DNA of 34,738 bases from a virus (lineage: Duplodnaviria > Heunggongvirae > Uroviricota > Caudoviricetes), in IMG/VR virus record IMGVR_UViG_2585427766_000001. One strand, given 5' to 3'. Made by a program: the position numbers and the translations under genes. Of this stretch, positions 4,840 through 32,054 are shown piece after piece. Each line of letters opens with the position of its first letter. Positions within the stretch are counted from its first letter, which is position 1. The notes beneath the pieces were generated by a model, which did not search any database, was not told where the DNA came from, and saw nothing but the letters and a program-made list of their open reading frames with translations.

Positions 4840-5469
4840 ATGCATATGATCCAATACTTGATTGACCATACAGAGCATCTGGAGAAAATAGCTGGATATA
4901 TTTTTTCATGTTTGATTGTTATGGGAGTCTGGATAAGAAAGATCATTTTTAATTATAAGTATAAAGAGCCTAAATATGTCAAGAAGTTAATTTTATATTT
5001 AGTTAAGTATGAACGTTATCTGGATAAGGAGGATAAGAGTGCCATAGAAAAAAGAATAAATGATAAAATTATTCGTGATGCGCTGAAATTGCAATCTTCT
5101 TATAACCGAAGTGATGTTATTTACATTTGCAATAGATTAGAAAAAAGACAGTATATAAATCAGGTGATTAAGCTTCAGAATTATATAGAGAAAGATAACG
5201 GAGTGTTTTTCATCAATGTTAATTTTTCAGGTTTTTTATTTATTATTAGTCGTCTGTTTTCCTTTCTGTGTTTTGTGCTGTTTATCCTTTTTTCTATTAT
5301 CTGCATTATTTCCATAGGGCAAAATGAAGGCCTTTTAAATTATCTTGTGTATATGGTTATGACAATAGTTTTAGAGACTGTTGGTTTTTGGATGTATGAT
5401 ACTTTCCCGTCTAAGAAGAAGATCTGTGAACTAAATAAAGAATTGAGGAAGATTAAGATTCCTGAGTGA
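4840..5469 (+). CDS. AT-rich hypothetical polytopic membrane protein (cargo gene)
   Basis: 209-aa ORF on the strand opposite to the surrounding operon. Hand count of three 60-nt lines gives about 27-32% G+C, against about 53% in a neighbouring polymerase line. One N-terminal hydrophobic helix (IAGYIFSCLIVMGVWI), a K/E/Y-rich segment, then C-terminal hydrophobic helices (FLFIISRLFSFLCFVLFILFSIICIISI, LVYMVMTIVLETVGFWMY). Confidence 0.6.
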   Translation: MHMIQYLIDHTEHLEKIAGYIFSCLIVMGVWIRKIIFNYKYKEPKYVKKLILYLVKYERYLDKEDKSAIEKRINDKIIRDALKLQSSYNRSDVIYICNRLEKRQYINQVIKLQNYIEKDNGVFFINVNFSGFLFIISRLFSFLCFVLFILFSIICIISIGQNEGLLNYLVYMVMTIVLETVGFWMYDTFPSKKKICELNKELRKIKIPE

Positions 5470-7389: not shown

Positions 7390-8292
7390 TTAACCCTCCA
7401 GTGCTTTTTCAGCCAGGGTGATTACTTCAGCGAGATTTTCATCCGTTACTTCACCAAGTTTCCTGGCTCCCTGTTTTTCCAGAATTGCAATAGCTTCTGC
7501 CCGGTAACCCCCTTTTGCTAACTGGAGGATCAACCCTTCAGCTTGTTTGCGTAGTGCCGCGAAATCAATTGTATGGTCATCTTTGGCGTCATGATTCTGG
7601 CTGGAATTTGCTGCGTCTCTGCGTGCAAATTCTTCTTGCAGCTGAAGGTACTCAACACGGTTGATCTCGATATGGCCTTTTTTCAGCATCTCGTTCAACT
7701 TGCGTAAGGTGTGGAGTTCACTGGCTGCTGTGCCGGATACATTTTTGGCGTAAAACGGCCCCGTGCGTTCTCCATCTTTGTTACTGGCCTTTTTCGGCTT
7801 AACTTCATCACGCCCATCCGCAGGTGCATCAAGTAGCTGCTCGGCAAAAACACGTCGCTCGCCGATGGTTGGCAGGTCGTCCCAGAACTTAAGGATGTTA
7901 CGGGACAGGTCCAGGAGAGCAGGTTTAAGCAGCGCCCTGGCTCGTTTGACGCCCTGCAATGCGCTGTCGAGAGCATCAATCTGAACTACTCGTTTATCGC
8001 CTTCAGCATCACGGTAGGCAACAGCACGTTGCAGCATGTCTTCTGTGATAGGGGTGGCTACCGGGTAGAAACCAGCCAGTGCGATAACGTCGCTGAACTC
8101 CAGATCATCCAGTGTCATTGCCGCTGACATATTTTCAGTTTCAGTTGCTGTATCCCGACATTCCTGCACTCGTGAAATCGTGTCAGGATGCATAACAATG
8201 CCTGATGCCATTGTGCGGATAAGACGTTCAAGCAGCGCATTATGTTGTGCCAGAAGTTGATTATTAAGTTCGAGACTGGTTTCTAAACTCAT
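7390..8292 (-). CDS. Hypothetical early-left protein
   Basis: 300-aa ORF coupled to its neighbours; acidic and helical; no motif I can name. Confidence 0.5.
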
Positions 8293-8471
8293 ACTGTGGT
8301 CCTCGCTACAAGGAGAATGAAAGTGATGATCAGACCGAGCGCAGTGGCAACGGCCAGACCGGTCATCAAATCGAAGTTTTTACGGCGATAACGGAGAACA
8401 TCGCGCCCCGTCAGTCGATGGAGGTATTCAGGTTTCATCGGTTGTATTCCTTTTTTCATATCGGGGAGCAC
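8289..8471 (-). CDS. Small hypothetical membrane protein, first gene of the leftward operon
   Basis: 60 aa: basic N-terminal half, then one hydrophobic helix LMTGLAVATALGLIITFILLVA. Stop overlaps the downstream start. Confidence 0.5.
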   Translation of the reverse strand: MLPDMKKGIQPMKPEYLHRLTGRDVLRYRRKNFDLMTGLAVATALGLIITFILLVARTTV

Positions 8472-8496
8472 GCTGTTGCGAGTGCGCTTTCAGACA

Positions 8497-8523
8497 TAAA
8501 AAAGCCCGTCACTTGAGGCGGGC
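8497..8523 (-). terminator. Intrinsic-terminator-like hairpin about 25 nt upstream of the leftward operon start
   Basis: Read on the minus strand: GCCCGCC-TCAAGT-GACGGGC followed by TTTTTT. Confidence 0.5.
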
Positions 8524-8662
8524 AAAGGCTACACACAGCAATTACTTGGATGTCAGCGAATGCCTGCTTTTAACCACGTCAGACGAGATGGCTCTCTCTG
8601 TACCCCTACAGCGAGAATTCGGCTAATATCTCTTTACCCCTATAGTTTTAGAGAGAATTAAG

Positions 8663-9187
8663 ATGTCTGAAGAAAAAGGACTTGTACGGCGTATAACTGA
8701 GGCGGCCACTAGTGCTGGTGGTGCTTTGAAAGGTGCTGTTGATTTAGCAAAAGAAGTTAATGCGTTGCAGGTGGATTACAATGTTAAAAGTAAAACTATC
8801 GATCTACTTGATAAACTAATTGATGCGCGTACTGGACAATTCGCACTAACGGAGCTTTTGAACGAAGCTAAACAGCGCATTGTTGAACTCGAATCCCTTC
8901 TGGAAAAGAAACAGGATTGGGATAGTGAGAAAATGAACTATGAAATGTACCACCCGATTACCAATACGGTGGTCTATGTACTGAAGCCTACTGACGATCC
9001 TGAGTTCAAGCCTCATTATCTTTGTACTACATGCTATGAGTCGGGTATGAAGTCTATACTTCAATACCATACTTCTAATGCCGCTTATAAAATTCTCAAG
9101 TGTCATAAATGCTCCGCTGAATATAAATTTCCCCGAAATATAGAAGTCAGTGGCAAAACTCCTGCACCGTTACAACCTGCCAGATGA
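8663..9187 (+). CDS. Hypothetical coiled-coil protein with C-terminal CxxC...CxxC zinc-ribbon (immunity-region cargo)
   Basis: 174 aa, convergent with cI. N-terminal heptad-like helices (LQVDYNVKSKTIDLLDKLIDA, AKQRIVELESLLEKKQDW); C-terminal LCTTCYESG...LKCHKCSAEY. Hand count of three lines gives about 37-47% G+C. Confidence 0.55.
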   Translation: MSEEKGLVRRITEAATSAGGALKGAVDLAKEVNALQVDYNVKSKTIDLLDKLIDARTGQFALTELLNEAKQRIVELESLLEKKQDWDSEKMNYEMYHPITNTVVYVLKPTDDPEFKPHYLCTTCYESGMKSILQYHTSNAAYKILKCHKCSAEYKFPRNIEVSGKTPAPLQPAR

Positions 9188-9280
9188 TTAGCAGTTCTCT
9201 TTGGTGGTGGTGTAGTGGTAGATGCTGAACTTCGGATTGACTCAATGGACTGATCTTCACCCCACCCCAAAAGGAACTAA

Positions 9281-9305
9281 GCGCCCCATCGTCGGGGCGT
9301 TTCAA
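9281..9305 (+). terminator. Intrinsic terminator downstream of 8663..9187
   Basis: GCGCCCC-ATCGTC-GGGGCG followed by TTT; about 95 nt past the stop. Confidence 0.5.
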
Positions 9306-9339
9306 CTTGCGTGACTTATCAGTTTGTCGCGGTGTTGTC

Positions 9340-9430
9340 CTCTACGCTTACCGTACGCATACGGACTCGGCGCTTACCTCGATCCCATCGGGTGCTATTT
9401 CGTTTTGCCAGGAGTACTGCGGCTTACCTG
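9340..9430. repeat. Three direct repeats of (G/A)CGCTTACC plus a small palindrome
   Basis: ACGCTTACCG (~9345), GCGCTTACCT (~9371), GGCTTACCT (~9421); palindrome CCGTACGCATACGG at ~9350-9363. The unit resembles lambda boxA (CGCTCTTA) but on the plus strand. Confidence 0.4.
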
Positions 9431-9477
9431 TCACGCGGTTCAGTTTGTTAAAGAGCCAGTATTAAAAAACGCATTAA

Positions 9478-9521
9478 TTATGCGATATCGTATTTATATG
9501 CGTTATGGGATTTTGTGTTAA
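9478..9521 (-). promoter_or_regulatory. Candidate leftward early promoter (PL-like) overlapped by operator-like repeats
   Basis: On the minus strand: TTAACA (-35, plus 9516-9521), 17-nt spacer, TATAAA (-10, plus 9493-9498). Two copies of TATGCG(A/T)TAT(C/G)G overlap it (TTATGCGATATCG ~9478; ATATGCGTTATGG ~9496); a third (TTATGCGTTATCG) lies in the cI-cro intergenic region. Confidence 0.45.
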
Positions 9522-9540
9522 TACTAAAATGAATTATTTT

Positions 9541-9575
9541 GCAAATAAGAAAACCGCCCTTGTGGAGAGCGGTTT
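9541..9575 (-). terminator. Intrinsic terminator of the repressor gene
   Basis: On the minus strand: AAACCGC-(11-nt loop)-GCGGTTT followed by TCTTATTTGC; about 30 nt past the cI stop. Confidence 0.55.
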
Positions 9576-9605
9576 GATCAGAAGTAAGTTATCAGACTGT
9601 AAAGG

Positions 9606-10280
9606 TTAGTACATACGTAGCGCGGATTTGGCGATCCCCGCCACGTAATGGATTTTTTCAATGTTTTCGCGTGGTACTCTGACTGGTGGATGATCTTCAT
9701 TTACAGACATTAGATGGAACAGGCCATCGCGTTCGAACAAGAAGGTTTTAACCATGACCTCACCTTCCCGGGTAACCACAAGTACTTCATCACCAGGAGT
9801 GTAGTCGTGGTTGGGTTCGACGATTACGAACTCCCCCTCTTTGATTCTAGGCATCATTGAATCACCAACACATTTCAGGGCGTATGCATCTTCATCCTTT
9901 GTCGGCCAGTATATGAAACCATCACTGCTACCTACTGAATATTGGGTGTCGCTCCAAAGTCCTCCAACGCCTAGCTGAGTGTTTCCCAAAACAGGTACTT
10001 TATTAAACCTAAGAGAAATATACGTTTTTATACCTGTCGCGTCCTCTTTCTCCATTTCTTGAAGGCTCCTTTCTGCCAAGTCTATTGGTGACACGTGGAA
10101 GTAGTCGGCGATCTGCTTTAACGTTGCGTATTTCGGATCTTTCACCTCTCCTGATACCAGCCTGTGTAGCGTTGGTTGGTTCAGCTGTAACCGACGTGCC
10201 AGCTCAGTTATCGAGCTTATCTTGGCTTTGTCCATCAGGTACTTGATGTTTTGAGAAAGGATATCGGTAGTATCAATCAT
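9606..10280 (-). CDS. cI: CI-like repressor (HTH_XRE + S24/LexA-type autopeptidase)
   Basis: N-terminal helix-turn-helix ISSITELARRLQLNQPTLHRLVSG; C-terminal S24 domain with catalytic Ser in CVGDSMMP and a downstream Lys (EVMVKTF). Divergent from a Cro-like gene. Confidence 0.85.
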   Translation of the reverse strand: MIDTTDILSQNIKYLMDKAKISSITELARRLQLNQPTLHRLVSGEVKDPKYATLKQIADYFHVSPIDLAERSLQEMEKEDATGIKTYISLRFNKVPVLGNTQLGVGGLWSDTQYSVGSSDGFIYWPTKDEDAYALKCVGDSMMPRIKEGEFVIVEPNHDYTPGDEVLVVTREGEVMVKTFLFERDGLFHLMSVNEDHPPVRVPRENIEKIHYVAGIAKSALRMY

Positions 10281-10421
10281 TTGGATTCATCCATGTTGTA
10301 TACAGGGACGGTGATTATGCGTTATCGGATATTTTAATCTAGGATGACATAGAATTGCTGTATTGCTGAGTAATCCGTTTTCGTATAAATTTGCGCTATA
10401 GACGAAAGTGGAAACTTAAAT
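10281..10421. promoter_or_regulatory. Divergent cI/cro promoter-operator region
   Basis: Rightward TTGCTG (10363-10368), 15-16 nt spacer, TATAAAT (10384-10390) ahead of cro. Leftward TATACA about 18 nt from the cI ATG (short leader). Operator-like TTATGCGTTATCGG at 10314-10327; tandem ATTGCTG x2 at 10354-10368. Confidence 0.55.
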
Positions 10422-10622
10422 ATGTCCGGACTAACACCACAAGAGATGGTCAAAAGCTTGATTGATTCAGGGTATACCCAAAACCAAATTGCCGAAATTG
10501 CAGGCGTGAAGCAGTCTTCTATTAGTCGGCTTCTTACCGGGGTTCATTCTGACCCTCGCTTTTCTACAGTACGTGCGATAGAAAAACTTTTTCAGGAAGT
10601 GACAGCTAGACAAAAGGTGTAA
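10422..10622 (+). CDS. cro: Cro-like HTH regulator
   Basis: 66 aa with HTH YTQNQIAEIAGVKQSSISRLL; divergent from cI and first gene of the rightward operon. Confidence 0.75.
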   Translation: MSGLTPQEMVKSLIDSGYTQNQIAEIAGVKQSSISRLLTGVHSDPRFSTVRAIEKLFQEVTARQKV

Positions 10623-10625
10623 CCC

Positions 10626-12812
10626 ATGTCCGATAGCAAACCATGGGGAGCTACGCCTGATGAGTGGTTTCATTTCGACCTGGTATTGGGGCGGACTGCT
10701 CATCTTCTCCCAGTTGTATGTAACCCCAGTGCGACCATATCCCCTGATAGTAAATTGAAAGCGTTGGGTAAGACGCCGAGTCGCTATAACCGGGACCGCC
10801 AGGTCACAGGTATTGCTCAATGGACCGGGCATGTTGTTACTGAGCATGATTTTGCCCGCTGGTCGAATGAACCGGATTATGGCATCTGCGTGCGTACAGG
10901 CCATGGCTGGCTGGCGCTGGACTGCGATAGCGAAGATGAAGACATTCAGGCAGATATTCGCAAAACACTTGTGCAACTTCTGGGTGAGTCGCCGCCGCGA
11001 CGCTGGCGAGCAAACAGTAATAAGTGTCTGTATCTGCTGGCCGTTGATGGTGATTTCCGTAAGCGTATCCATCGCCTGGCGGGGGATATGGGCATTATCG
11101 AGTTGCTGGCGAACGGGCAGCAGTTCGTTGCCTGTGGTACGCACAGCAGCGGCGCGCGTATTGAATGGGACGGTGGTTTGCCGGATGAACCTCCGGCTAT
11201 TACAGGTGAGCAGCTTGAAACGCTGTGGCAGCGCCTGGCTGAACAACTCCCTGTGTCGGTAACCACCGAAGCGGGCAACACGAAGATGCGCGACCGTTCA
11301 GCATTCACGCCCGGCGCGACGGATGATACAGCTGAATATCTTGATGCCAATGGCTGGACGCTGCTGGATGGCGCAAACGGTGAACGATATATCCGCTGTC
11401 CGTTTGAAGACGGCCACAGTAGCGGAGGCGATCCAACAAGCACAGTTTATTTTCCTGCGGGAACCGCAGGCTTTGAGCAGGGGCATTTTAAATGCCTGCA
11501 TGCCAGTTGCGCGCATCGTGATGACGGAGATTTCCTGAATGCCATCGGGATCCGCAACGACGATTTCGAAGATCTGACCAGCATCGAAGTGGCGGAACCT
11601 TTACCGCTGCCTGCTTTCGAGCGTGATAAATGGGGGCGTATCGAGGCAACCATCAGCAATGCAGCCAAAGCAGTAGTACGCTCTGATTTTGTGGACATCG
11701 ATATTCGCTTTGACCAGTTCCGCGACGAAATCATGTTTGCCCCGGCAGGATCCGGACAATGGCGGGCATTCACCGATGCGGATTATGCGCGCCTGCGCAT
11801 CACGATGGAAAAGCGGGGATTTAAACCTGTTGGCCGTGAACTTATTCGCGATGTGGTGTTACTTGCAGCCGATGAACAACCATTCGATTCAGCGATCACC
11901 TGGCTGAACGGACTGGAGTGGGATGGCGTGCCGCGCATCGAATGTTTCTACCATACGCACTTCGGTACCGCCGACACGCCTTATACCCGTGCGGTGTCTA
12001 TGTACATGTGGACCGCGTTGGCGGGGCGAGTACTGGAGCCAGGCATCAAAGCGGATATGGTGCCGATCCTCGTTGGTCCGCAGGGCTGCGGTAAGTCTTC
12101 CGGAGTGGAGGCACTGAGCCCTGATCCTGCGTTTTTTACTGAAATCTCTTTTGCCGAAAAAGACGATGATCTCGCTCGAAAAATGCGTGGTCGGCTGGTG
12201 GCAGAGATTGGTGAACTGCGCGGGCTTAATACCAAAGAGCTGGAGTCAATCAAAGCGTTTGTGACGCGTACTCACGAAAACTGGATCCCGAAATACCGGG
12301 AGTTCGCCACCCAGTTTCCTCGTCGCCTGGTGTTCGTTGGTACCACTAATGAGGACGAATTCCTTGCGGACAAGACTGGTAACCGTCGCTGGCTCCCCGT
12401 GGAAGTGTCGAAAGTCGACGTGAAAGCGATAAAAAGAGATCTCCTTTTACTTTGGGCTGAGGCTCGTGAGGTGTTTCAGCGTCTGGGGGGTATCCAGTTC
12501 CGTGAGGCTGAACAACTGGCAGCGAGTGTCCATGAACAGTACACCATCAAGGATGCTTGGCTTGAAACGGTAGAGAAATGGCTCGACACGCCCGACCTGA
12601 TGACTAATGAACTTCCGCGAAATTGCGAATTTTTACGCGCAAGTGATGTTTTGCGTGATGCGATTGGGCTAAATCCTGACCGCATCGGAAAACGCGAAGA
12701 AATGCGAATTAGTAATGTTTTGCAAAATTGCGGGTATAAGCGTGCCCAAAGGCGAATTGGGGGGAAAAAATGCAAGGTTTGGGAACCGCTGGAACCACGC
12801 GGAACCACCTAG
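10626..12812 (+). CDS. Replication primase/helicase fusion (prim-pol N-terminus, zinc finger, VirE/D5-like P-loop NTPase)
   Basis: 728 aa. Catalytic acidic cluster GWLALDCDSEDED; Cys/His zinc-binding CPFEDGHSSGG...HFKCLHASCAH; Walker A ILVGPQGCGKSS; Walker B-like RRLVFVGTTNEDE. Confidence 0.8.
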   Translation: MSDSKPWGATPDEWFHFDLVLGRTAHLLPVVCNPSATISPDSKLKALGKTPSRYNRDRQVTGIAQWTGHVVTEHDFARWSNEPDYGICVRTGHGWLALDCDSEDEDIQADIRKTLVQLLGESPPRRWRANSNKCLYLLAVDGDFRKRIHRLAGDMGIIELLANGQQFVACGTHSSGARIEWDGGLPDEPPAITGEQLETLWQRLAEQLPVSVTTEAGNTKMRDRSAFTPGATDDTAEYLDANGWTLLDGANGERYIRCPFEDGHSSGGDPTSTVYFPAGTAGFEQGHFKCLHASCAHRDDGDFLNAIGIRNDDFEDLTSIEVAEPLPLPAFERDKWGRIEATISNAAKAVVRSDFVDIDIRFDQFRDEIMFAPAGSGQWRAFTDADYARLRITMEKRGFKPVGRELIRDVVLLAADEQPFDSAITWLNGLEWDGVPRIECFYHTHFGTADTPYTRAVSMYMWTALAGRVLEPGIKADMVPILVGPQGCGKSSGVEALSPDPAFFTEISFAEKDDDLARKMRGRLVAEIGELRGLNTKELESIKAFVTRTHENWIPKYREFATQFPRRLVFVGTTNEDEFLADKTGNRRWLPVEVSKVDVKAIKRDLLLLWAEAREVFQRLGGIQFREAEQLAASVHEQYTIKDAWLETVEKWLDTPDLMTNELPRNCEFLRASDVLRDAIGLNPDRIGKREEMRISNVLQNCGYKRAQRRIGGKKCKVWEPLEPRGTT

Positions 12813-13098: not shown

Positions 13099-13521
13099 AT
13101 GCGTAATATTCAACAGGTTTTAGAGCGCTGGGGTGGCTGGGCAGCGAGTGAAGGTGGTAGCGTCTACTTTCCTCCTGTTGCAGCCGGGTTTAAGAATCTG
13201 CTACCCGCGACGCAGTCTGGAAGGCTGAAATGCAGTGACAATGACGGTCTTATCATCAACTCCGCTATGAGCTGCCTGAAGAAAAAAGATCCGTATCTGT
13301 GCACGCTCCTTGAGTGGCATTACGTCCAGGCCATGCCCGTGCGGGCGATGGGTGAGAAGCTCGGCGTATCTCACACCCACGTTCTGAAGAGGCTTCAGGC
13401 GGCAGAGGGATTTATTGACGGTTGCTTAGCCATGCTGGATGTGGTGCTCGAAATGGATCAGTCGGTTCAGTCAAAGCCTCAGGCTATCAGGACTTTGCGT
13501 AGGAGCTGCTCGGCGGCATAA
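13099..13521 (+). CDS. Late-gene antiterminator, Q-like (Phage_antitermQ family, from recollection)
   Basis: 140 aa. MRNIQQVLERWGGWAA...AAGFKNLLP...LQAAEGFIDGCLAMLDVVLEMD resembles the short Q-family antiterminators of enterobacterial prophages; position upstream of a terminator and the lysis cassette fits. Confidence 0.6.
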   Translation: MRNIQQVLERWGGWAASEGGSVYFPPVAAGFKNLLPATQSGRLKCSDNDGLIINSAMSCLKKKDPYLCTLLEWHYVQAMPVRAMGEKLGVSHTHVLKRLQAAEGFIDGCLAMLDVVLEMDQSVQSKPQAIRTLRRSCSAA

Positions 13522-23499: not shown

Positions 23500-24050
23500 G
23501 TTTCAAAAGCGGTGTAACAACGAGGGTGGATAACGCTAAGGCCATTCTGGATGCGCTCAGGTCGTTAACCAAAAAAGATGTGCTGGTCGGCATCCCTTCG
23601 GAAGACAGCGAACGGGATGATGTTCCGTTTGGTAATGCGGGCATCGGTTACCTCAACGAATACGGCTCACCAGAGCAGAACATCCCGCCACGACCTCACC
23701 TGGTCCCCGGCGTTAAATCGGCAGAAGAGCAGACGGTGCCGCAGCTTAAAGCCGCGGCGCAGGCTGCACTTGATGGTAATGCTGCGGGAGCAGAAAGTGC
23801 ACTCAACCGTGCCGGAACGCTGGCCGTTAATGGCGTCAGGCGTTACATGACCATTACCGGCTTTACGCCGCTTGCTGACAGTACTGTTGAAGCCCGGGCT
23901 CGTCGGGGGCGCAAGGGGGCAACACTGGAACTTGCCCGGCGTGTTGCTGGCGAATCTCCCGGAACCGATCTGGCGAAACCATTAATTGACACCGGGCAAT
24001 ATCGCAGAGCTATTACCCATGTAGTGAGGGATAAAGATGCCGACTCTTGA
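23496..24050 (+). CDS. Hypothetical head-tail joining protein
   Basis: 184-aa ORF coupled to neighbours in the head-tail junction block. Confidence 0.45.
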
Positions 24051-24426
24051 TGTAACAGATGTGCTTTTTGACCCCGATTTTTGCGACTTCAATTTGTGGG
24101 TAACACGCCGTGTGCAAACGGTGGATGAGGACGGAATCGGCAGCGACAGCGAAGTTAAAAAGCAGTTTGCCGGAGTCGTTACTGTTGATCGCTCTCTGGA
24201 AAACCGTCGTATGCAGGCCGGGCAGGTAATCAGTGGTGCAATTCTGATTGTGACGACTGAGCGACTGACGCAGGGACAGACTGGCCGTGATGCCGATATC
24301 GTGACGTATCAGGGCCGTGATTACCGTGTGACCTTCGTCGACCCGTATACAGCTTATGGGGCCGGATTCGTTCAGGCGCATTGTGAGTTGATGCCGTTTG
24401 ATGGGGGAACTCCGGTTGAGCAATAA
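24037..24426 (+). CDS. Hypothetical head-tail joining / tail completion protein
   Basis: 129-aa ORF with overlapping start and stop typical of structural operons. Confidence 0.45.
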   Translation: MPTLDVTDVLFDPDFCDFNLWVTRRVQTVDEDGIGSDSEVKKQFAGVVTVDRSLENRRMQAGQVISGAILIVTTERLTQGQTGRDADIVTYQGRDYRVTFVDPYTAYGAGFVQAHCELMPFDGGTPVEQ

Positions 24427-24964
24427 CACCAGTACAGAGCGCGGATGGTTAATACCAACCAGTGGCGATCCGGATTATGACGAAGCGCTCGACAGGCTGT
24501 TAAGCCAGTGGATACGTAACGTTTCCGGTCTGTCTGCCGGGATGGTTCGCCCGCGCTGGCAGAAAGAGCAGCCGCCACTGCTACCGGTTGAAACGAACTG
24601 GTGTGCGTTTGGGGTTATCGGATGGTCAGGTGATGACAGTCCGGCATTCACCAGACAGACCGATGATGGCTCTCAGCTCTGGCGGCATGAAACGATTGAG
24701 TGTATGGCTTCGTTTTATGGACCGGCGGGGATGGTGTATGCGTCCCGGTTTCGTGACGGTATATCTGTGCCGCAGAACAATGCAGCACTGAATGCGCTGG
24801 GGCTGTCTCTTGGCGATTACACAGGTCTGACTCCCTTCCCTGAACTTATTAATCAGCAATGGGTCCGCCGCTACGATATGACGGTGCGCCTGCGCCGGAA
24901 GGTTGTGCGCGAGTACGGTATTAAATCGCTGGTGGATGCACCAGTCATCTTTTTCGGAGATTAA
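24398..24964 (+). CDS. Hypothetical tail completion protein
   Basis: 188-aa ORF directly upstream of the sheath gene; start uncertain. Confidence 0.45.
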   Translation: MMGELRLSNNTSTERGWLIPTSGDPDYDEALDRLLSQWIRNVSGLSAGMVRPRWQKEQPPLLPVETNWCAFGVIGWSGDDSPAFTRQTDDGSQLWRHETIECMASFYGPAGMVYASRFRDGISVPQNNAALNALGLSLGDYTGLTPFPELINQQWVRRYDMTVRLRRKVVREYGIKSLVDAPVIFFGD

Positions 24965-24967
24965 GCT

Positions 24968-26113
24968 ATGGCACAGGGCTTGCCTGTATCAAACGTTGTT
25001 AATGTTGATGTGATCATGTCGCCGCGTGCAGCATCAGGGCGAAATTTTGGTGCATTACTCATTCTCGGCCCGTCCACAATCATTCCGGTAAGTGAGCGCA
25101 TTCGCCGTTATTCTGCCGCGGAAGATATTGGAAAAGATTTTGGCGTGGAATCACCAGAATATAAGGCTGCGCAGGTGTTTTTCTCTCAATCACCGAAACC
25201 TCAGGAGGTTTTTGTTGGTCGTTGGGTGAAAACGAAGGGAGACAGCGAACAGGCCACGCCTGAGACGCTGGAGCAGGCTGTGAATGCCATGCTTGATTAT
25301 ACTTCATGGTATGGGCTGGGGATTGCAGACGATGAAGATATTCAGGATGCAGACTGGCTGAAAGTGGCTGCGGCGATCGAATCCTCTTCTGTAAGCCGTA
25401 TTCTGGCGATTACGACAAGCGATGAGAAATGCCTGCAGACTGCATCCAGCGATGATTTGGCATCAAAACTGAAAACCGCCGGATATTCACGCAGTTTTAT
25501 TCAGTATTCATCGGGTAATAAATACGCTGCGTTATCTGCATTTGGCCGGGCATTCACGGTTAATTTCAATGGCAGTAATACCGCGATTACGCTCAAGTTT
25601 AAGCAGGAGCCGGGTATCGGGTATGAAACACTGACAGTCAGCCAGGCATCGGCACTTGATGCAAAAAACTGCAATGTATTCGTGTACTACCAGAATGATA
25701 CGGCTATCCTCCAGCAGGGAGTGATGGCTAACGGCGATTTCTTTGATGAACGCCACGGCCTGGACTGGTTACAGAATTATGTGCAGACCAACCTCTATAA
25801 CCTGCTTTATACCAGCACCACGAAAGTTCCCCAGACTGAAGCCGGTATTACCCGACTGTTATCAAATGTTGAAAAATCACTGGATCAGGCCGTTCAGAAT
25901 GGACTGATTGCTCCGGGCGTATGGAACGGGGGCGACCTTGGTCAGTTGTCATCAGGTGACACACTGCCCAAAGGTTATTACGTATACGCTCAGCCGCTGG
26001 ATGAACAGGCTCAATCAGAACGTGAAGCCCGTAAGGCTCCGGTGATTCAGGCTGCAATAAAACTTGCAGGCGCGGTTCATTACGCTGACGTACAGATTAA
26101 CGTTGTTCGCTAA
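24968..26113 (+). CDS. Putative contractile tail sheath protein (DUF3383-like)
   Basis: 381-aa ORF followed by a 146-aa tube-like ORF, a chaperone-like ORF and the tape-measure gene. Assignment by order and size. Confidence 0.55.
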
Positions 26114-26123
26114 GGGGAAGTGA

Positions 26124-26564
26124 ATGTCTACCTATTCTTTTATGGATGTCACTGCGACGCTGACCGGGCCGACAGGTTCGATTGACCTCGGGTACGGTTC
26201 GGCAAGTTCTGAAGAGGGGATTGTGGTTGCGATGGGCGGTCCTAAAAACACCATGACCATCGGTGCTGATGGCGAAGTGATGCACAGTCTCCATGCAGAT
26301 AAAAGCGGGACGATTACCGTTAACCTTCTGAAGACATCACCGACAAATAAAAAATTGTCGCTGGCGTATAACGCACAGAGCCAGTCTTCTGCCACATGGG
26401 GGAATAACGTTATCGTGATCCGCAACAAGGTCAGCGGCGACATCATCACGGCACGCAGTGTTGCGTTCCAGAAACAACCGGATAACGCCAACGCTAAAAC
26501 CGGTAATACGATGCCGTGGGTGTTTGACTGCGGCAAGATTGACCAGGTTCTCGGGGAGTTTTAA
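26124..26564 (+). CDS. Putative tail tube protein (DUF3277-like)
   Basis: 146-aa ORF immediately after the sheath gene. Confidence 0.55.
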   Translation: MSTYSFMDVTATLTGPTGSIDLGYGSASSEEGIVVAMGGPKNTMTIGADGEVMHSLHADKSGTITVNLLKTSPTNKKLSLAYNAQSQSSATWGNNVIVIRNKVSGDIITARSVAFQKQPDNANAKTGNTMPWVFDCGKIDQVLGEF

Positions 26565-26567
26565 TGC

Positions 26568-27020
26568 ATGGAATTCGAAATTAAAGGCGTGAAATATCGC
26601 ACGGCAAAACTCAGCGTTTTTGACCAGCTGAAAGTGACCCGCAAACTTCTGCCGGTGCTGGCAGGAATGATGTCAGATTTCGGGAGTATTCGCTCCCGTT
26701 TGCCTGCTGACGGCAAAATCGACACCGTGAAATTCGAACAGTTAAAACCGGTGTTTGAAACCATGCTCCCGCGTATCGCTGAGGAACTGTCTTCCCTGAC
26801 CGAAGATGACACCGATGCGATTATTCATCCCTGTCTTGCGGTGGTATCGCGGCGTCATATGGACGGATGGGTGCCGGTATTTACCCAGGGCGAACTGATG
26901 TTTGATGATATTGACTTGCTGGTCATGCTGCAGCTGGTGGCGCGGGTGGTCGCCGATTCGCTGGGAAATTTTTTGCCTACACCCCTTACCAGCACGACGC
27001 AGAGCCTGCAACAGGGCTGA
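26568..27020 (+). CDS. Putative tail assembly chaperone
   Basis: 150-aa acidic ORF between tube and tape-measure genes. Confidence 0.5.
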   Translation: MEFEIKGVKYRTAKLSVFDQLKVTRKLLPVLAGMMSDFGSIRSRLPADGKIDTVKFEQLKPVFETMLPRIAEELSSLTEDDTDAIIHPCLAVVSRRHMDGWVPVFTQGELMFDDIDLLVMLQLVARVVADSLGNFLPTPLTSTTQSLQQG

Positions 27021-27197
27021 CGTTTAACAGCCTGCCGGACGGGCTGTCCTACCTTCTCAATCCGGTTGACGCCGGGTTAATTCCTTATACAGCACTTAAA
27101 GATGGCTCTGTCGATTTGTATGACATTGCTCTCTTGAATGACCATCTGGCGGTAAAAGCGGATAACCAGCGACGCATTGAGAAATGGAGAGAGGATA

Positions 27198-29186
27198 ATG
27201 AACGCTGAAACTATTAAAGATTTCCTCGTCTCGCTTGGCTTCAGTGTGGATGATGCAGGAGCGAAAAAGTTCGGTTCTGTCCTCGCCGGTACAACTGCAA
27301 ATGTCATCAAAATGGGGCTGGCTGTTGAAGGAGCTGCGTTGTCCGTGGTGGCCTTCACGGCTAAGATCGCCTCCGGCCTGGATAATCTTTACTGGGCGTC
27401 ACAGCGCACCGGCGCGACAGTCCAGGGAATTCAGTCTATTGGCTATGCGGTTTCGCAGGTTGGCGGCAGCGTGGACGCTGCGCGATCTTCTCTGGAAAGC
27501 CTATCCCGGTTTATTCGTAACAATCCCGGTGCAGAAGGCTTTCTGAATCGCCTGGGCGTACAGACCCGTGATGCCAGCGGTAACATGCGTGACATGGCCG
27601 CTATTTTTACGGGCGTTGGACAGAAACTCAGCAGCATGCCGTATTACCGGGCTAACCAGTATGCGCAGATGCTGGGCATTGACGAAAATACCCTTATGGC
27701 GATGCGCCGGGGTGTGGGTGGCTTCTCCGGGCAGTACAGCGCAATGGCGAAAGCTATCGGCTTCAATGCTGACGAGGCGGCCAGAAGCTCCAACAAATTT
27801 ATGACCTCCCTGCGTGAGTTTGGCGCGATGGCAGGCATGGCCCGTGACAAAATCGGCTCTAATCTTGCGGGGGGGCTTGCGGGTTCGCTGGACACCCTGC
27901 GCCGCCATATCCTGGACAACTTCCCTCGTATCGAGCAGACCCTGACGAAAGCCATAAAAGGCATTCTGGCGCTCGGGGATATTATCGGGCGGCTGTTCTT
28001 CAGACTGATTGAGGGGACATCAGGTCTTATCACCTGGTGGCAATCGCTGGATAAGCAAACGCGGGAGTTGATCTCGCTGTTTGGCGCACTGACGATTGCG
28101 CTGCGCATTCTGAACAGTACGTTCTGGATGTCGCCGATTGGCCTCATTACCGCGCTGGCGGCGGGTATTGCCCTCCTGTGGGAGGACTATCAGACCTGGA
28201 AGGAAGGCGGCGACAGCCTGATTGACTGGGGCAAGTGGAAACCGGAGGTCGATGCCGCGCTGAAGATGGTTCGTGACCTTAAAACGACCGTTAACGACCT
28301 GGTGAAAGCGCTGGCGAAACTGCTCAATATTGACCCCAAATCATGGTCCCTGAAGTGGGATTTCAGCAACTTCATCGACCAGATGGGCGAATTCAGCAAA
28401 ATGCTGAACATGATCGCCGACCTGCTCAACGCTATCAAAGATGGCCGCTGGGCTGATGCCGTCAGCATCGGCAAACAGATACTTAATCAGGGCAGCGAAA
28501 ATCCGTCAGCGATGCCGATGGTTACAGACAGCGCTAACAGTACTGCCGACTGGATTAAAGAGCACTGGGGATTCGATCCCCGCAGTGTGAGCCGGACGGT
28601 ACGCGGCTGGTTTGGTGATGATGAGCCGGAACAACATGCACAGGCTACGAAACGAGGAGAACGGAATAACAATCCGGGAAACCTTAATTTTGCTGGTCAG
28701 GCAGGGGCTTCTCTTGAACGCCCGGGCGGGCGATTTGCCAGATTTGAAACTGCTTTTGATGGATTACGGGCTCTTGCTCGTCAGTTAATGCTGTACGCCG
28801 GACGGGGAATAAACAGTGTGGAGAAAATTATCTCTACCTGGGCACCTGCGTCTGATAATAACAACACAACTGCGTATATCAGGGCTGTATCGCAACGACT
28901 GGGAGTGGATCCCCGGGCTGCCCTGAATATGAGCGATCCGCAAACCATGTCAGCATTGATGAGCAGCATTATCCAGCATGAGAATGGAAGAAATATCTAT
29001 TCTCGGGAGCTGATTAATAAGGCTGCCGTGGCGGGAATTAGTGGCAAAGTGACAGAGGTTAACCAGCAAAATACCTACCACATTTACGGTGGTGGAGATC
29101 CGCACGCTGTCGGTAATGAGGTTGCACGTCGGCAACAGTCTGCAAATGCTCAGGTCATGCGAAGTAATCAGGTGAGGGTGGGTTAG
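27198..29186 (+). CDS. Tail tape measure protein
   Basis: About 660 aa from ATG 27198 (GGAGAGAGG upstream; track ORF starts at 27177); long helical, Ala/Gly-rich, with a hydrophobic central segment. Confidence 0.7.
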   Translation: MNAETIKDFLVSLGFSVDDAGAKKFGSVLAGTTANVIKMGLAVEGAALSVVAFTAKIASGLDNLYWASQRTGATVQGIQSIGYAVSQVGGSVDAARSSLESLSRFIRNNPGAEGFLNRLGVQTRDASGNMRDMAAIFTGVGQKLSSMPYYRANQYAQMLGIDENTLMAMRRGVGGFSGQYSAMAKAIGFNADEAARSSNKFMTSLREFGAMAGMARDKIGSNLAGGLAGSLDTLRRHILDNFPRIEQTLTKAIKGILALGDIIGRLFFRLIEGTSGLITWWQSLDKQTRELISLFGALTIALRILNSTFWMSPIGLITALAAGIALLWEDYQTWKEGGDSLIDWGKWKPEVDAALKMVRDLKTTVNDLVKALAKLLNIDPKSWSLKWDFSNFIDQMGEFSKMLNMIADLLNAIKDGRWADAVSIGKQILNQGSENPSAMPMVTDSANSTADWIKEHWGFDPRSVSRTVRGWFGDDEPEQHAQATKRGERNNNPGNLNFAGQAGASLERPGGRFARFETAFDGLRALARQLMLYAGRGINSVEKIISTWAPASDNNNTTAYIRAVSQRLGVDPRAALNMSDPQTMSALMSSIIQHENGRNIYSRELINKAAVAGISGKVTEVNQQNTYHIYGGGDPHAVGNEVARRQQSANAQVMRSNQVRVG

Positions 29187-29773
29187 TGGATATTCTCTCT
29201 ACACTTTTTCATCAGCAGAGCAGAAAAATAGGAATGATTGTTCCCTGTGTTGTTATTTCAGAGAAGCATACAGATATGCTTGAAATAACAGAGCATCCGG
29301 TAGAGGTCGGGGCCGCTGTCGCTGATCATGCCTATAAAAAACCGTCAGAAGTGGTGATGGAGGTTGGTTTCGCCGGTGGTGGCGCATTGCTGGATTTTGC
29401 CAGTAACCTGACGGCTACCAGCCTGCTCGGCCTGAGTCCTCAGCAGACGTATCAGGAGCTACTGGATCTGCAGGAAAGCCGTATCCCCTTCGATGTGGTA
29501 ACCGGTAAACGACTGTACAGCAACATGTTGATCCGGGCGCTGGAAGTGACGACGGACAAGACAACCGAAAACGTCCTGTCCGCCGTCCTCACCCTGAGGG
29601 AGGTCCTTATCTCCCGGACACAGCAGATTTCCGTCGCGGATAAAACCAACATGAAGGAAGGGGCCAGCACGTCGGCGGTACAGAACAGCGGCAACAAAAC
29701 CACCAAGCCTCCAGATACTTCACTGCTGAAAAGCATCACGGGTAACGTGGCGTCATTACTGGGGGGCGGCTAA
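29186..29773 (+). CDS. Hypothetical tail/baseplate protein
   Basis: 195-aa ORF, GTG start overlapping the tape-measure stop. Confidence 0.45.
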   Translation: MDILSTLFHQQSRKIGMIVPCVVISEKHTDMLEITEHPVEVGAAVADHAYKKPSEVVMEVGFAGGGALLDFASNLTATSLLGLSPQQTYQELLDLQESRIPFDVVTGKRLYSNMLIRALEVTTDKTTENVLSAVLTLREVLISRTQQISVADKTNMKEGASTSAVQNSGNKTTKPPDTSLLKSITGNVASLLGGG

Positions 29774-30075
29774 TGGCAATTCAGGAAATTCCGCTGACAG
29801 CGGACAACCAGCAGTTCAGCATCGTCCTGGGTGGTGTTACCTGGCGGATTAGCATCATATGGCGCGATCTGTACTGGATTATGGACCTGCAGAACGACAG
29901 AGGGGAGCCGGTAATCTCCGGTATTCCTCTCGTCACTGGTGCTGACCTGCTGGCGCAGTACGCCTGTATGGGGCTTGGTTTTAAGCTGGTGGTGGTCTGT
30001 GATGACAACACACAGGATTACCCCACAAAAACTGACCTGGGCGGTCGCAGCCATTTACTGGTATCAACGGAGTAA
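29773..30075 (+). CDS. Hypothetical tail/baseplate protein
   Basis: 100-aa ORF coupled to its neighbours. Confidence 0.45.
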   Translation: MAIQEIPLTADNQQFSIVLGGVTWRISIIWRDLYWIMDLQNDRGEPVISGIPLVTGADLLAQYACMGLGFKLVVVCDDNTQDYPTKTDLGGRSHLLVSTE

Positions 30076-30077
30076 GC

Positions 30078-31142
30078 ATGTCACAGAACTGGATGAGACA
30101 TTTCGAGCTGCAGCTTGTGGACGGGAACGGTCAGGGAATTGAGCTAAGTGATTTTAAAGTGACCTTTACGATCGACTGGTTCAACATCAGCAGCGCGTCC
30201 CGGGTAGGGACTATCAAAATTTATAACCTCTCGGCAGATACTGTGAACCGAATCACCGGGCGGGAGTTTTCGAAAGTGCGTCTGATTGCGGGTTACGACG
30301 GTATCGCGCCGGAGGTGTCGGCAAGCGACGTCGGGATCGTGCGGGAGGTTGATGCGGCGGACGTGGGCCAGAGTGATGGCCGCAACTACGGACTGATTTT
30401 CAGCGGTGAAATTCGCTACTCGGTTACAGGAAAAGACAGTCCGGTTGATTCCTACGTCCTGATTCAGGCAGCAGATACTGATCTGGCTTTTGCCACCAGT
30501 ATAACCTCACAGACGCTGGCTGCCGGTTACACGGTCGCTGATGTGAACCGTGCGCTGATGAAAGACTTCGAAGCCAAAGGTGCGACCGAAGGCCTGACGC
30601 CTGAAATGCCTGCTACTGTATTCCCCCGGGGGCGGGTGCTCTTTGGCATGACGCGGCATCTAATGGATAACGTAGCCGGGCAATGTGGCGCAACATGGCA
30701 ATTCGTAGACGGTCAGCGCCAGATGGTGGCGAATAATGAATATGTTCACGAAGCGATTGTGCTCAACAGCGCTACCGGGCTTATTGGCATGCCGCAGCAG
30801 ACCATCGGCAACGGCGTAAACGTTCGCGCGCTTATTAATCCGAACATCCGGGTTAATGGGCTCATTCAACTGGATCAGGCTTCCGTATATCGCACCGCGT
30901 TGTCGAACAACGATATCGCTATGGCTGGTGGGCAGATCACCGACCAGAACACGGACGGAAATATTACGCTAAGCGGCACCACATCGCAGCCTGCCAGCAT
31001 CGCAACGGATGGCGTTTATATTGTGCGCGGGATTATGTACACTGGCGATACAAGGGGCCAGGCGTGGTACATGGATATGATGTGCGAAGCGCGCGGTGCG
31101 CAGGATATGCCATCCAGCACTGCTTTTCAGAGAGGATTATAG
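30078..31142 (+). CDS. Putative baseplate hub protein (Mu P-like)
   Basis: 354-aa ORF before the spike and baseplate genes. Positional inference. Confidence 0.5.
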   Translation: MSQNWMRHFELQLVDGNGQGIELSDFKVTFTIDWFNISSASRVGTIKIYNLSADTVNRITGREFSKVRLIAGYDGIAPEVSASDVGIVREVDAADVGQSDGRNYGLIFSGEIRYSVTGKDSPVDSYVLIQAADTDLAFATSITSQTLAAGYTVADVNRALMKDFEAKGATEGLTPEMPATVFPRGRVLFGMTRHLMDNVAGQCGATWQFVDGQRQMVANNEYVHEAIVLNSATGLIGMPQQTIGNGVNVRALINPNIRVNGLIQLDQASVYRTALSNNDIAMAGGQITDQNTDGNITLSGTTSQPASIATDGVYIVRGIMYTGDTRGQAWYMDMMCEARGAQDMPSSTAFQRGL

Positions 31143-31144
31143 AA

Positions 31145-31492
31145 ATGAAACGATGGATATTTTCATTGCTGGCATTAGTGTCTGTTGGTGTAAGTGCAAA
31201 CACCATAACGATGCAATGCGGCAACTTTCGTATGGATGCGATCCCTGATTCATTATTTAAAATCAATGGCGAAACAGTAACGTCCCAAAAAGTAAAAATG
31301 TTGGGTAAAGACGGTACAGGCATGCAGATCAAAATGGACCTGATGCCTGCCAAAGATGGCAACAATTATGGGTTCGAGTATATCCATCGACCTGGCACTA
31401 AAACGCGTTTCCTGAACGTCCAGTTGTTGCAGAACAGCATGGATGCTCCGAAAATTATTGGCTCTTTCCCGTGTAAGAAATTTGTTGGTTGA
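31145..31492 (+). CDS. Small secreted protein with cleavable signal peptide (cargo cassette gene 1)
   Basis: Start at ATG 31145, 2 nt after the hub stop (the track ORF 31064..31492 includes an upstream extension). MKRWIFSLLALVSVGVSA then NTIT: basic n-region, hydrophobic core, A-x-A-like cleavage site. Two Cys (QCGNF, FPCKKF). AT-shifted. Confidence 0.6.
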   Translation: MKRWIFSLLALVSVGVSANTITMQCGNFRMDAIPDSLFKINGETVTSQKVKMLGKDGTGMQIKMDLMPAKDGNNYGFEYIHRPGTKTRFLNVQLLQNSMDAPKIIGSFPCKKFVG

Positions 31493-31499
31493 TTGAGAA

Positions 31500-32054
31500 A
31501 TGAGCAAGCGTTCGTCAATAGATACAACAGAAGAACAAAAGGCAATTGAGACTATAGGCGCTGATTTTATTTCGTCATATTATAAAGATAGATATGAGGA
31601 AGCAAAATCAACATATCGTCGTCTTGAGGACAAAGTTAACTACCTTCTTGCTATTTTAGCTGTAGAAACCTCTGCTCTACTGGCTGTATTTGGGACTGTT
31701 GATTTCAAAAGTGGGCTAAAGAGTAATTGGTTTTTAACATTATCTATACTTTGTGCATATCTGTGCTTTGTTTGTATTGTTATGTGCTTTTTTTTCCTAT
31801 GGCGTACTTGGGGACTGAAAGATATACCAAAAATGCCTATTCATAAGCGAAAAGAAGAGCATGATTTTTTATTTTACGGTGATAAAATTAAAACGCTTAG
31901 ATACCATATGTTTCAGTATGGTAAAGCTGTTGAATTGATCGAAAGTCTTCATAAAGAAAAGGCAGTTTACGCTCGTTATCTTTTTGAAGGAATTGCGTTA
32001 TCTTTCGGTTTTTTCATATTATCGGTTACTTTTCTTTTGATAAATAAGGCATAG
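31500..32054 (+). CDS. Hypothetical integral membrane protein (cargo cassette gene 2)
   Basis: 184 aa with hydrophobic helices YLLAILAVETSALLAVFG, WFLTLSILCAYLCFVCIVMCFFFLW and IALSFGFFILSVTFLLI. Hand count of three lines gives about 25-42% G+C. Confidence 0.6.
   Translation: MSKRSSIDTTEEQKAIETIGADFISSYYKDRYEEAKSTYRRLEDKVNYLLAILAVETSALLAVFGTVDFKSGLKSNWFLTLSILCAYLCFVCIVMCFFFLWRTWGLKDIPKMPIHKRKEEHDFLFYGDKIKTLRYHMFQYGKAVELIESLHKEKAVYARYLFEGIALSFGFFILSVTFLLINKA

Follow-up and report, generated by a model that had tools for sequence, protein, structure and literature searches.

Early antitermination in temperate phages depends either on the protein N acting at nut sites, together with Nus factors, or on put RNA, which acts without factors. 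The locus described here raises the question of how leftward transcripts get past a terminator that stands directly in front of the first leftward gene when no N-like gene is visible. A preliminary description of this DNA had remarked on the missing N, and PHROG and Pfam scans of the 10 neighboring ORFs agree: they recognized only Q and no N-like protein (a novel N that these scans would not recognize is possible). We lean, by a small measure, towards the view that the promoter-proximal leader is an N-less equivalent of nutL that would recruit Nus factors.

The early-left control region

The window, by which we mean the whole stretch of 34.7 kb that was analyzed, is an E. coli prophage. Its positions 8400-9620 are 99.8% identical to prophages of ETEC H10407, O103:H2 12009, and others, and the induced phages vB_EcoM-606R2, 689R2, 611R5, and 683R1 are relatives of the window prophage. 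The local gene order around 9281-9521 is lambda-like, with these features:

8289..8471, minus strand: first conserved left-operon gene, phrog_11981, function unknown (RefSeq start at 8438)
9479..9490, plus strand: operator-like copy TATGCGATATCG, which covers the predicted start (pattern search)
9493..9498, minus strand: -10 hexamer TATAAA, with a 17-nt spacer (direct reading)
9497..9508, plus strand: operator-like copy TATGCGTTATGG, which lies in the promoter spacer and reaches over the -10
9516..9521, minus strand: -35 hexamer TTAACA of the PL-like promoter (direct reading)
9551..9575, minus strand: intrinsic terminator for the cI-like repressor gene, immediately upstream of the early-left promoter (terminator scan)
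9606-10280, minus strand: cI-like repressor gene, with Peptidase_S24 and HTH domains (Pfam)
10316..10327, plus strand: operator-like copy TATGCGTTATCG, in the cI/cro divergent control region
10422-10622, plus strand: cro-like gene
10626-12812: VapE-type primase gene
13099-13521: Q antiterminator gene

The terminator of the repressor gene folds at -13.4 kcal/mol (z = -3.7). On the minus strand, the left operon encodes, in order, a small membrane protein, a 300-aa protein, a DUF2800 nuclease, a Gp2.5-like ssDNA-binding protein, and a DNA polymerase. The first product is tail-anchored in the membrane: it has 45-60 aa, an invariant HRLTGxD motif, a stretch of basic residues, and a membrane helix at its C-terminus. 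We considered whether this small protein could be an analogue of N or Nun and rejected the idea, as its conserved part is HRLTGxD plus the membrane helix and not an arginine-rich motif. Within the left operon, between the genes for the ssDNA-binding protein and the DNA polymerase, there is also an accessory gene on the opposite strand (4840-5469, plus strand) for a predicted membrane protein of 209 aa (phrog_10579), so leftward transcripts must cross these positions in antisense too. The H10407 copy carries a frameshift in the DNA polymerase gene and an internal stop in the SNF2 gene, and decay may therefore be under way in some of these prophages.

A leftward PL-like promoter had been proposed here, and reading the minus strand we find it at 9521..9493, where it matches the consensus at 10 of 12 positions. 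Near-identical prophages (for example that of ETEC H10407) align with TTGACA at the -35, for a match at 11 of 12, and the TTAACA of the window may be a promoter-down change. The -10 hexamer TATAAA is kept in the alignment of Yersinia phage YeP4 and of phage 606R2. Our consensus scanner demands a T at position 6 of the -10, which is why it did not list this promoter. The leftward transcription start is predicted at about 9486-9488.

The operator-like motif TATGCGWTATSG occurs exactly three times in the 34.7 kb (at 9479, 9497, and 10316), and allowing one mismatch adds no further copy. By chance we would expect 0.52 copies, and three were reached in 1 of 100 shuffles. This exact pattern search agrees with the earlier report of two copies at PL and one at the cI/cro switch. 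Both of the PL copies are placed as operators would be, one in the spacer and over the -10 and the other at the predicted start; the latter, TATGCGATATCG, is part of an imperfect palindrome, ATGCGATATCGTAT (inverted repeat I24). The copies support the proposal of a leftward, repressor-controlled, PL-type promoter whose operators are common to the cI/cro switch. We also tried the 5' hairpin CGCAUAAUUAAUGCG with its U6 as an RNA element or attenuator and rejected it: relatives that have the same repressor do not keep the stem intact, and operator DNA is the likelier identity. On our reading, positions 9281-9521 hold the PL-type early-left controls of a lambda-like immunity module and, with them, the 5' leader RNA of the left (replication/recombination) operon.

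A boxA and a covarying RNA domain

Past the predicted start, on the minus strand, the leader contains the following:

9445..9456, minus strand: boxA GCUCUUUAACAA, exact, about 31 nt past the predicted start
9309..9436, minus strand: structured RNA domain of about 130 nt with multiple helices (covariance model and covariation)
9436..9430 paired with 9315..9309, minus strand: helix P1
P2-P4, minus strand: irregular rod
9413..9394, closed by AGGA at 9341..9338, minus strand: junction core UCCUGGCAAAACGAAAUAGC
9393..9376, minus strand: P6 hairpin, with a bulged A
9364..9351, minus strand: optional P7 arm, a hairpin
9282..9299, minus strand: terminal hairpin CGCCCC-GACGAU-GGGGCG, kept in types A, B, and E

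All of the features that the preliminary description listed near PL are present, but it overlooked the exact boxA at 9445-9456. There is a single exact copy of GCUCUUUAACAA within the window. This 12-mer is identical to the boxA of E. coli rrn operons: a 62-nt rrn leader sequence that includes it is found in all 5426 E. coli genomes, with a median of 7 copies. The same 12-mer is present in the rrn leaders of Idiomarina, after a promoter and a boxB hairpin. When we retrieved elements by the core motif alone, 43 of the 44 genuine ones had the exact boxA. The folded domain always starts 8-11 nt from boxA (8 nt in the window), in a promoter-proximal position.

Single-sequence folds of every type converge on the same order: boxA, a spacer of 8-11 nt, P1, the rod P2-P4, the junction, P6, and an optional P7. 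P1 is a long-range helix of 7 bp that encloses about 115 nt, and P1-P4 form a rod, a coaxial helix of about 23 bp that is broken by internal loops. The junction loop sequence is AAAACGAAAUA, and the junction core is invariant across types. We model the domain as a three- or four-way-junction RNA.

Covariation supports this fold. A covariance model built on 26 type-A sequences found 84 instances, including types B-E, and it matches the window at 9307-9456 (minus strand) with 182 bits. On the covariance-model alignment, 94.5% of cells are paired and 31 of the 41 base pairs have compensatory changes (on both sides), in an alignment that had been fitted to the model. None of 500 shuffles reached the observed values, and controls with slid partners were 19-35% paired. 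RNAalifold, run de novo on the same alignment, gave 33 pairs, of which 25 are compensatory. Folding the leader and looking for covariation across related prophages had been suggested as a check, and the double changes and RNAalifold both bear the fold out. For example, P1 is GCGUGAC/GUCACGC in types A and B, GCAUGAC/GUCAUGC in C, CACAGCAGC/GCUGCUGUG in E, and GCACUG/CAGUGC in D. P6 is CCCGAU/AUCG-A-GG in A, CCGCGA/UCGC-A-GG in B, and CCGGUA/UACC-A-GG in C and E. Type D is without P7 and keeps the remaining fold. One locus (L057, 6498-6621) has a natural deletion of 26 nt between two GGUAAGCG (GGTAAGCG) direct repeats, which removes P7 and keeps the other helices; it amounts to a natural deletion test of the P7 arm.

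The preliminary description had instead reported three direct repeats, a small palindrome, and hairpins containing CCCATCG. The palindrome (CCGTA/TACGG at 9351-9364) and the hairpins (9282-9299 and 9376-9393) are real. Two of the repeats are exact, with RCGCTTACC at 9344 and 9370, but the third, at about 9420-9427, matches in GCTTACC only. As separate motifs, none of these stands. Because of the compensatory fold and the loss of P7 in L057 and in type D, we read them as strands of P2/P3, P6, P7, and the terminal hairpin, and the repeats are found in one type only.

We favor the minus strand as the functional one, given that boxA and the promoters of every type point leftward and that G-U cells exceed C-A cells 2:1 on that strand (128 vs 66). 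The fold energy of the minus strand is no more stable than that of shuffled sequences (z = +0.68). The plus strand folds better (z = -2.4), some positions of helix 3 are C-A on the minus strand and G-U on the plus strand (the 66 cells), GCTTACC occurs three times, and GenBank phage records have a hypothetical plus-strand CDS across the element. So one might suppose that the plus strand acts as an antisense RNA to the leader, or that this is a DNA element (iterons, an origin, or a site of single-strand initiation for the VapE-type primase). We consider this extremely unlikely. The boxA and about 10 promoter types are all leftward, most architectures lack the context of a plus-strand promoter, and in the window the transcript of the plus-strand accessory gene reaches the conserved hairpin before it reaches the domain. 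We rejected iterons or DNA repeats because the GCTTACC repeats are specific to type A (types B-E keep the helices but have lost or altered the repeats), because they map on helix strands, and because the L057 deletion between two of them costs only the optional P7. We rejected a plus-strand protein because the reading frame is not conserved: there are indels of +1, -1, and -26 nt, and three different frames are open across types.

The shape of the rod raises another question, which is whether P1-P4 is a processing and stability element for RNase III or RNase E that tunes the left operon and has no effect on polymerase. A coaxial helix with internal loops would suit this role, and the stem of the lambda N leader is a precedent for processing (Kameyama 1991, as it is cited in PMC11893012). 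Nevertheless, processing would not explain the invariant junction core, the A-rich loop, or the tight linkage to boxA. Also, the first gene is about 1 kb away in the window, so local effects on its ribosome-binding site are impossible. We think this reading distinctly unlikely.

Returning to the leader as an antitermination element, its distribution is informative about what varies with it. The boxA and domain are nearly invariant in 84 prophage or viral loci. A pattern of boxA plus the downstream conserved block identified 76 viral contigs, and related patterns yielded more. In the RNA sense, the sequence is near-invariant from boxA to the hairpin about 165 nt downstream. Upstream of boxA there are about 10 unrelated types of promoter and operator, and in each, a -35/-10 pair with the same orientation precedes boxA by 25-45 nt. 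This implies that the leader is a module that is independent of repressor specificity. The operator copies travel with the repressor.

Five sequence types (A-E) have a common architecture, and homologues of the first left-operon gene accompany all types of the element. A sixth, type F, has boxA with a different fold. Type F (L103 and L116) has the same boxA and the same small first gene, and its folded leader was missed by the covariance model; the leader hairpin CUGG-CGCAUAACGAAAA-CCAG shows a similar A-rich loop. The stretch of leader between promoter and boxA is collinear with that of a P22-type nutL in types C, E, and F; in this P22-type counterpart, boxB and an N-like gene stand in place of the domain. 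Yersinia phage YeP4, which has type D, shows the same gene order with just 370 bp between the repressor and the first left gene.

Of 5426 complete E. coli genomes, 92 (about 1.7%) carry the element, each in a single copy and none with an annotation for it. Carriers include ETEC H10407 and STEC O103:H2. In GenBank phages it occurs in four records, and the YeP4-6 phages carry the type D version. Species-representative genomes gave only two true matches, in Trabulsiella and Erwinia. Searching the whole window against Rfam 15 gave no match to the element at the gathering score, and searching 8400-10500 gave none on its minus strand at E <= 10; a tRNA/tmRNA scan found none either. In the literature that we searched, there is no description of the element, of a phage RprA-like RNA, or of N-independent antitermination by boxA. 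It looks like an undescribed RNA family, of the promoter-proximal antitermination leader kind.

From the leader to the first left-operon gene

Between the domain and the left operon, the window contains:

9188..9270, minus strand: variable cargo element, with a long closing helix of GGGGUGNGGUG paired with CACNNCACCNCC, outside the conserved leader
8663..9187, plus strand: accessory gene, 174 aa, phrog_1244, inserted in the left-operon leader
8494..8607, minus strand: candidate RprA-like small RNA (Rfam RF00034, 45.5 bits, E = 6e-4, below the gathering threshold of 70)
8543..8498, minus strand: seed AUUGCUGUGUGUAG, terminator hairpin, and U6

An A/U-rich, single-stranded linker (AAGUUGAAAC) lies between P1 and the terminal hairpin, and in the window CUUAGUUCCUUUU (9281..9269) comes directly after that hairpin. 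In most variants, no U-tract follows. The terminal hairpin may be a weak leftward terminator, and may also be a terminator or insulator for the plus-strand accessory gene. Past it there is variable cargo: long hairpins, a second structured element, a tRNA-like gene, or accessory genes on the opposite strand. The cargo element of the window is about 70 nt, and seven variants of it show covariation in the 13-bp closing helix (UUUGGGGUGNGGUG/CACNNCACCNCCAAAG). The second structured element is also found in L017, L026, L047, L055, L066, and L132, while L038 has a tRNA-like gene at the cargo position (Rfam tRNA, 33.4 bits) that ends in CCGCACCACCA.

The layout in the preliminary description left out the plus-strand gene at 8663-9187, between the leader and the first leftward gene. 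The phrog_1244 protein has a coiled-coil N-terminus and a C-terminal CxxC...CxxC. The 85 bp upstream of its gene (8560-8645) match the sequence upstream of lambda sieB at 82% identity, and phage 606R2 has a different gene in its place. In the window, the promoter is about 1 kb from the first left gene; across 57 architectures, between 167 and 2077 nt separate boxA from this gene. Some loci have very short reading frames here. In L020 and L108 (types C and E), start-stop mini-ORFs follow the domain, with an SD-like GGAGGA or GAGGAG, an AUG, and an immediate stop; L043 and L072 have a three-codon ORF at a similar place after the element.

The terminator that had been reported at 8497-8523 is real, with a hairpin and U6 on the minus strand. 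That it lies before the first leftward gene, so that read-through is needed, also holds in about 41 of the 57 architectures. It is not a bare barrier, however, as it forms the 3' end of the RprA-like sRNA. The 3' part of this RNA, AUUGCUGUGUGUAG(U/C)CUUUGCCC plus the terminator, is near-identical to that of host RprA, and the 5' part is unrelated. Its identity to the annotated rprA of essentially all E. coli genomes is 82.6% over 46 nt. We found no match to RF00034 at the gathering score in 12 related loci. The RprA-like seed is present in those roughly 41 architectures, directly before the first left-operon gene. An RprA-like RNA is also seen in L039, L023, L025, L064, and others. Type D (Yersinia) has only a non-canonical hairpin and U-run, without the RprA-like element. 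Whatever the cargo, a strong terminator stands 20-100 nt ahead of the first left gene in most of the 57 architectures. Several of them have a Shine-Dalgarno sequence directly after the U-tract, with no space left for a promoter, so the polymerases that enter the operon must have passed the terminator. We suggest that the phage RNA may be an RprA mimic that is released on induction.

A leader that gathers RNA genes in this way (the tRNA-like gene of L038, the second structured element, and the RprA-like sRNA) might itself be a small "ncRNA operon" of the domain, the cargo RNAs, and the RprA mimic. The boxA would then be merely anti-Rho, and the domain would be a separate, stable ncRNA that is cut from the leader and acts in trans as a decoy, sponge, or guide for a factor of the host or the phage. 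The linker AAGUUGAAAC could be the processing site, and a junction core that is invariant across types is what we would expect of a binding surface. On the other hand, the conserved loop has no complementary site within the window that could be its antisense target. And a free-standing RNA gene would have no need to be promoter-proximal and always 8-11 nt from boxA. Our impression is that a role in trans is rather unlikely.

The arrangement also brings riboswitches to mind, as P1 closes a multi-way junction with an invariant core and variable or optional peripheral helices, and terminator-like hairpins follow. If the domain were an aptamer for a ligand or factor, it could set the ratio of terminated to read-through transcripts according to the physiology of the host. 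We consider this very unlikely: no type has a mutually exclusive pairing of antiterminator and terminator, the hairpin that follows is without a U-tract in most variants, and there is no match to an Rfam riboswitch even at E <= 10.

A proposed N-less leader and its relation to known systems

The rival explanations (a trans-acting RNA, a processing element, a sensor, or a function of the plus strand or of the DNA) are less well supported than the N-less leader. The leader probably lets transcription pass terminators and reach the replication genes without a phage N protein. We envision that in the lysogen, the cI-like repressor would bind the two operator copies that overlap the promoter and keep PL off. 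Upon derepression, the minus-strand transcript would display the rrn-identical boxA at about +31 and, 8 nt past it, the junction RNA of about 130 nt, which is where boxB is located in nutL of lambda and P22. The boxA would bring the host's NusB/NusE, and via them NusG, NusA, and SuhB, onto RNA polymerase, and the modified polymerase would resist Rho over about 1 kb of untranslated RNA, including the antisense of the accessory gene. The folded domain would stabilize or extend this modification, in the manner of an oversized boxB that needs no protein, or of put. Some polymerases would then pass the RprA-like intrinsic terminator and enter the left operon, while the remainder would terminate and yield the small RNA.

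Complexes of Nus factors that depend on boxA shield long non-coding transcripts from Rho, both in rRNA and in CRISPR arrays (PMC4807359, PMC7665894). The untranslated and antisense RNA of about 1 kb between PL and the first gene fits with this kind of protection. Complexes at rrn-type boxA work chiefly against Rho and less against intrinsic terminators, so read-through of the RprA-like terminator rests on the role that we infer for the domain. That the domain would also confer resistance to intrinsic terminators is the central point of the model. Counting against the model, there is no second copy of the element for the rightward operon, unlike in lambda or HK022; searches of the window with the exact boxA and with the covariance model found neither a second boxA nor a second element. 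A bolder version, which we hold only tentatively and think less likely to be right than wrong, is that boxA plus the junction RNA of about 130 nt replaces both boxB and N, as a new class of processive antiterminator that resists Rho and intrinsic terminators alike. This device would split the transcripts from PL between a terminated leader that ends in the RprA mimic, which would reprogram host control of RpoS and biofilms, and read-through into the replication genes.

How does this leader compare with known systems? The nutL sites of lambda and P22, which act with N or gp24 of the phage and with Nus factors of the host (NusA/B/E/G for the lambda-type site), also lie close to the promoter, in the early leftward operon of a cI/cro immunity region. 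Like the lambda-type nut, the leader has a boxA (of the CGCUCUUUA type) in an early transcript, here GCUCUUUAACAA, which is of the consensus type as in a P22-like nutL (L107). Again as in nutL of lambda and P22, a spacer of 8-11 nt leads to a helix, and terminators lie downstream. Unlike them, the element is without the 15-nt boxB hairpin with its purine-rich pentaloop, and P1 opens after boxA instead; boxB hairpins of the P22 or lambdoid type are seen in other loci (L107 and L096). Also unlike them, no N-like, arginine-rich protein was found near the element, and in contrast to lambda nut, there is one copy of the element per genome and no equivalent of nutR. We considered whether the mEpimmI "Nus-dependent non-lambdoid" coliphages belong to the same group and rejected this, because they have the N-like Gp17 (PMC11893012).

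Like HK022 put, the leader is a candidate for protein-independent action, a folded RNA just downstream of PL in a phage without N. The put RNA works in cis on RNA polymerase, at the beta' zinc-binding domain, with no help from protein factors. HK022 put is about 70 nt, with two stems and no boxA; it does not need Nus factors, and it suppresses both intrinsic and Rho-dependent terminators (PMC9378689). The element exceeds put in size and, unlike put, combines a closing helix with a junction and a fused boxA. We searched HK022 24000-32000 with the covariance model, with filters off, and rejected homology: the best hit had 7.4 bits and E = 2.8. The preliminary description had proposed a nut- or put-type antitermination region. 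Of these two ideas, nut has been strengthened by the rrn boxA and the covarying fold, while a homologue of put was not found by the covariance-model search.

As in rrn leaders and CRISPR arrays, whose boxA assembles a complex of NusB/E/A/G/SuhB, a boxA identical to that of the host's rrn heads a long untranslated transcript, and as in pre-rRNA, one strand of a long-range helix follows immediately 3' of this boxA. Unlike the rrn leader, there is no boxC (UGUGUGGG), that is, no GU-rich block after boxA (by reading the sequence, in comparison with the rrn leaders of Idiomarina). Also, the hairpin CGCAUAAUUAAUGCG upstream of boxA is disrupted in relatives, and the context is a phage operon with intrinsic terminators. 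As for RprA (RF00034), the likeness lies in the 3' part, with AUUGCUGUGUGUAG(U/C)CUUUGCCC followed by a terminator and a U-tail. Only the 3' half aligns well, and the 5' two-thirds are unrelated. The RNA of the window also differs in being carried by a phage, within the PL leader and immediately in front of the first left gene.

A host rrn boxA joined to a large, conserved, folded RNA, with no recognizable N, would if true be a third solution to early antitermination. The leader would then be a natural test case for how far an RNA can go in reprogramming the Nus complex by itself, and the RprA-like RNA suggests that prophage induction feeds straight into the RpoS/CsgD small-RNA network of the host.
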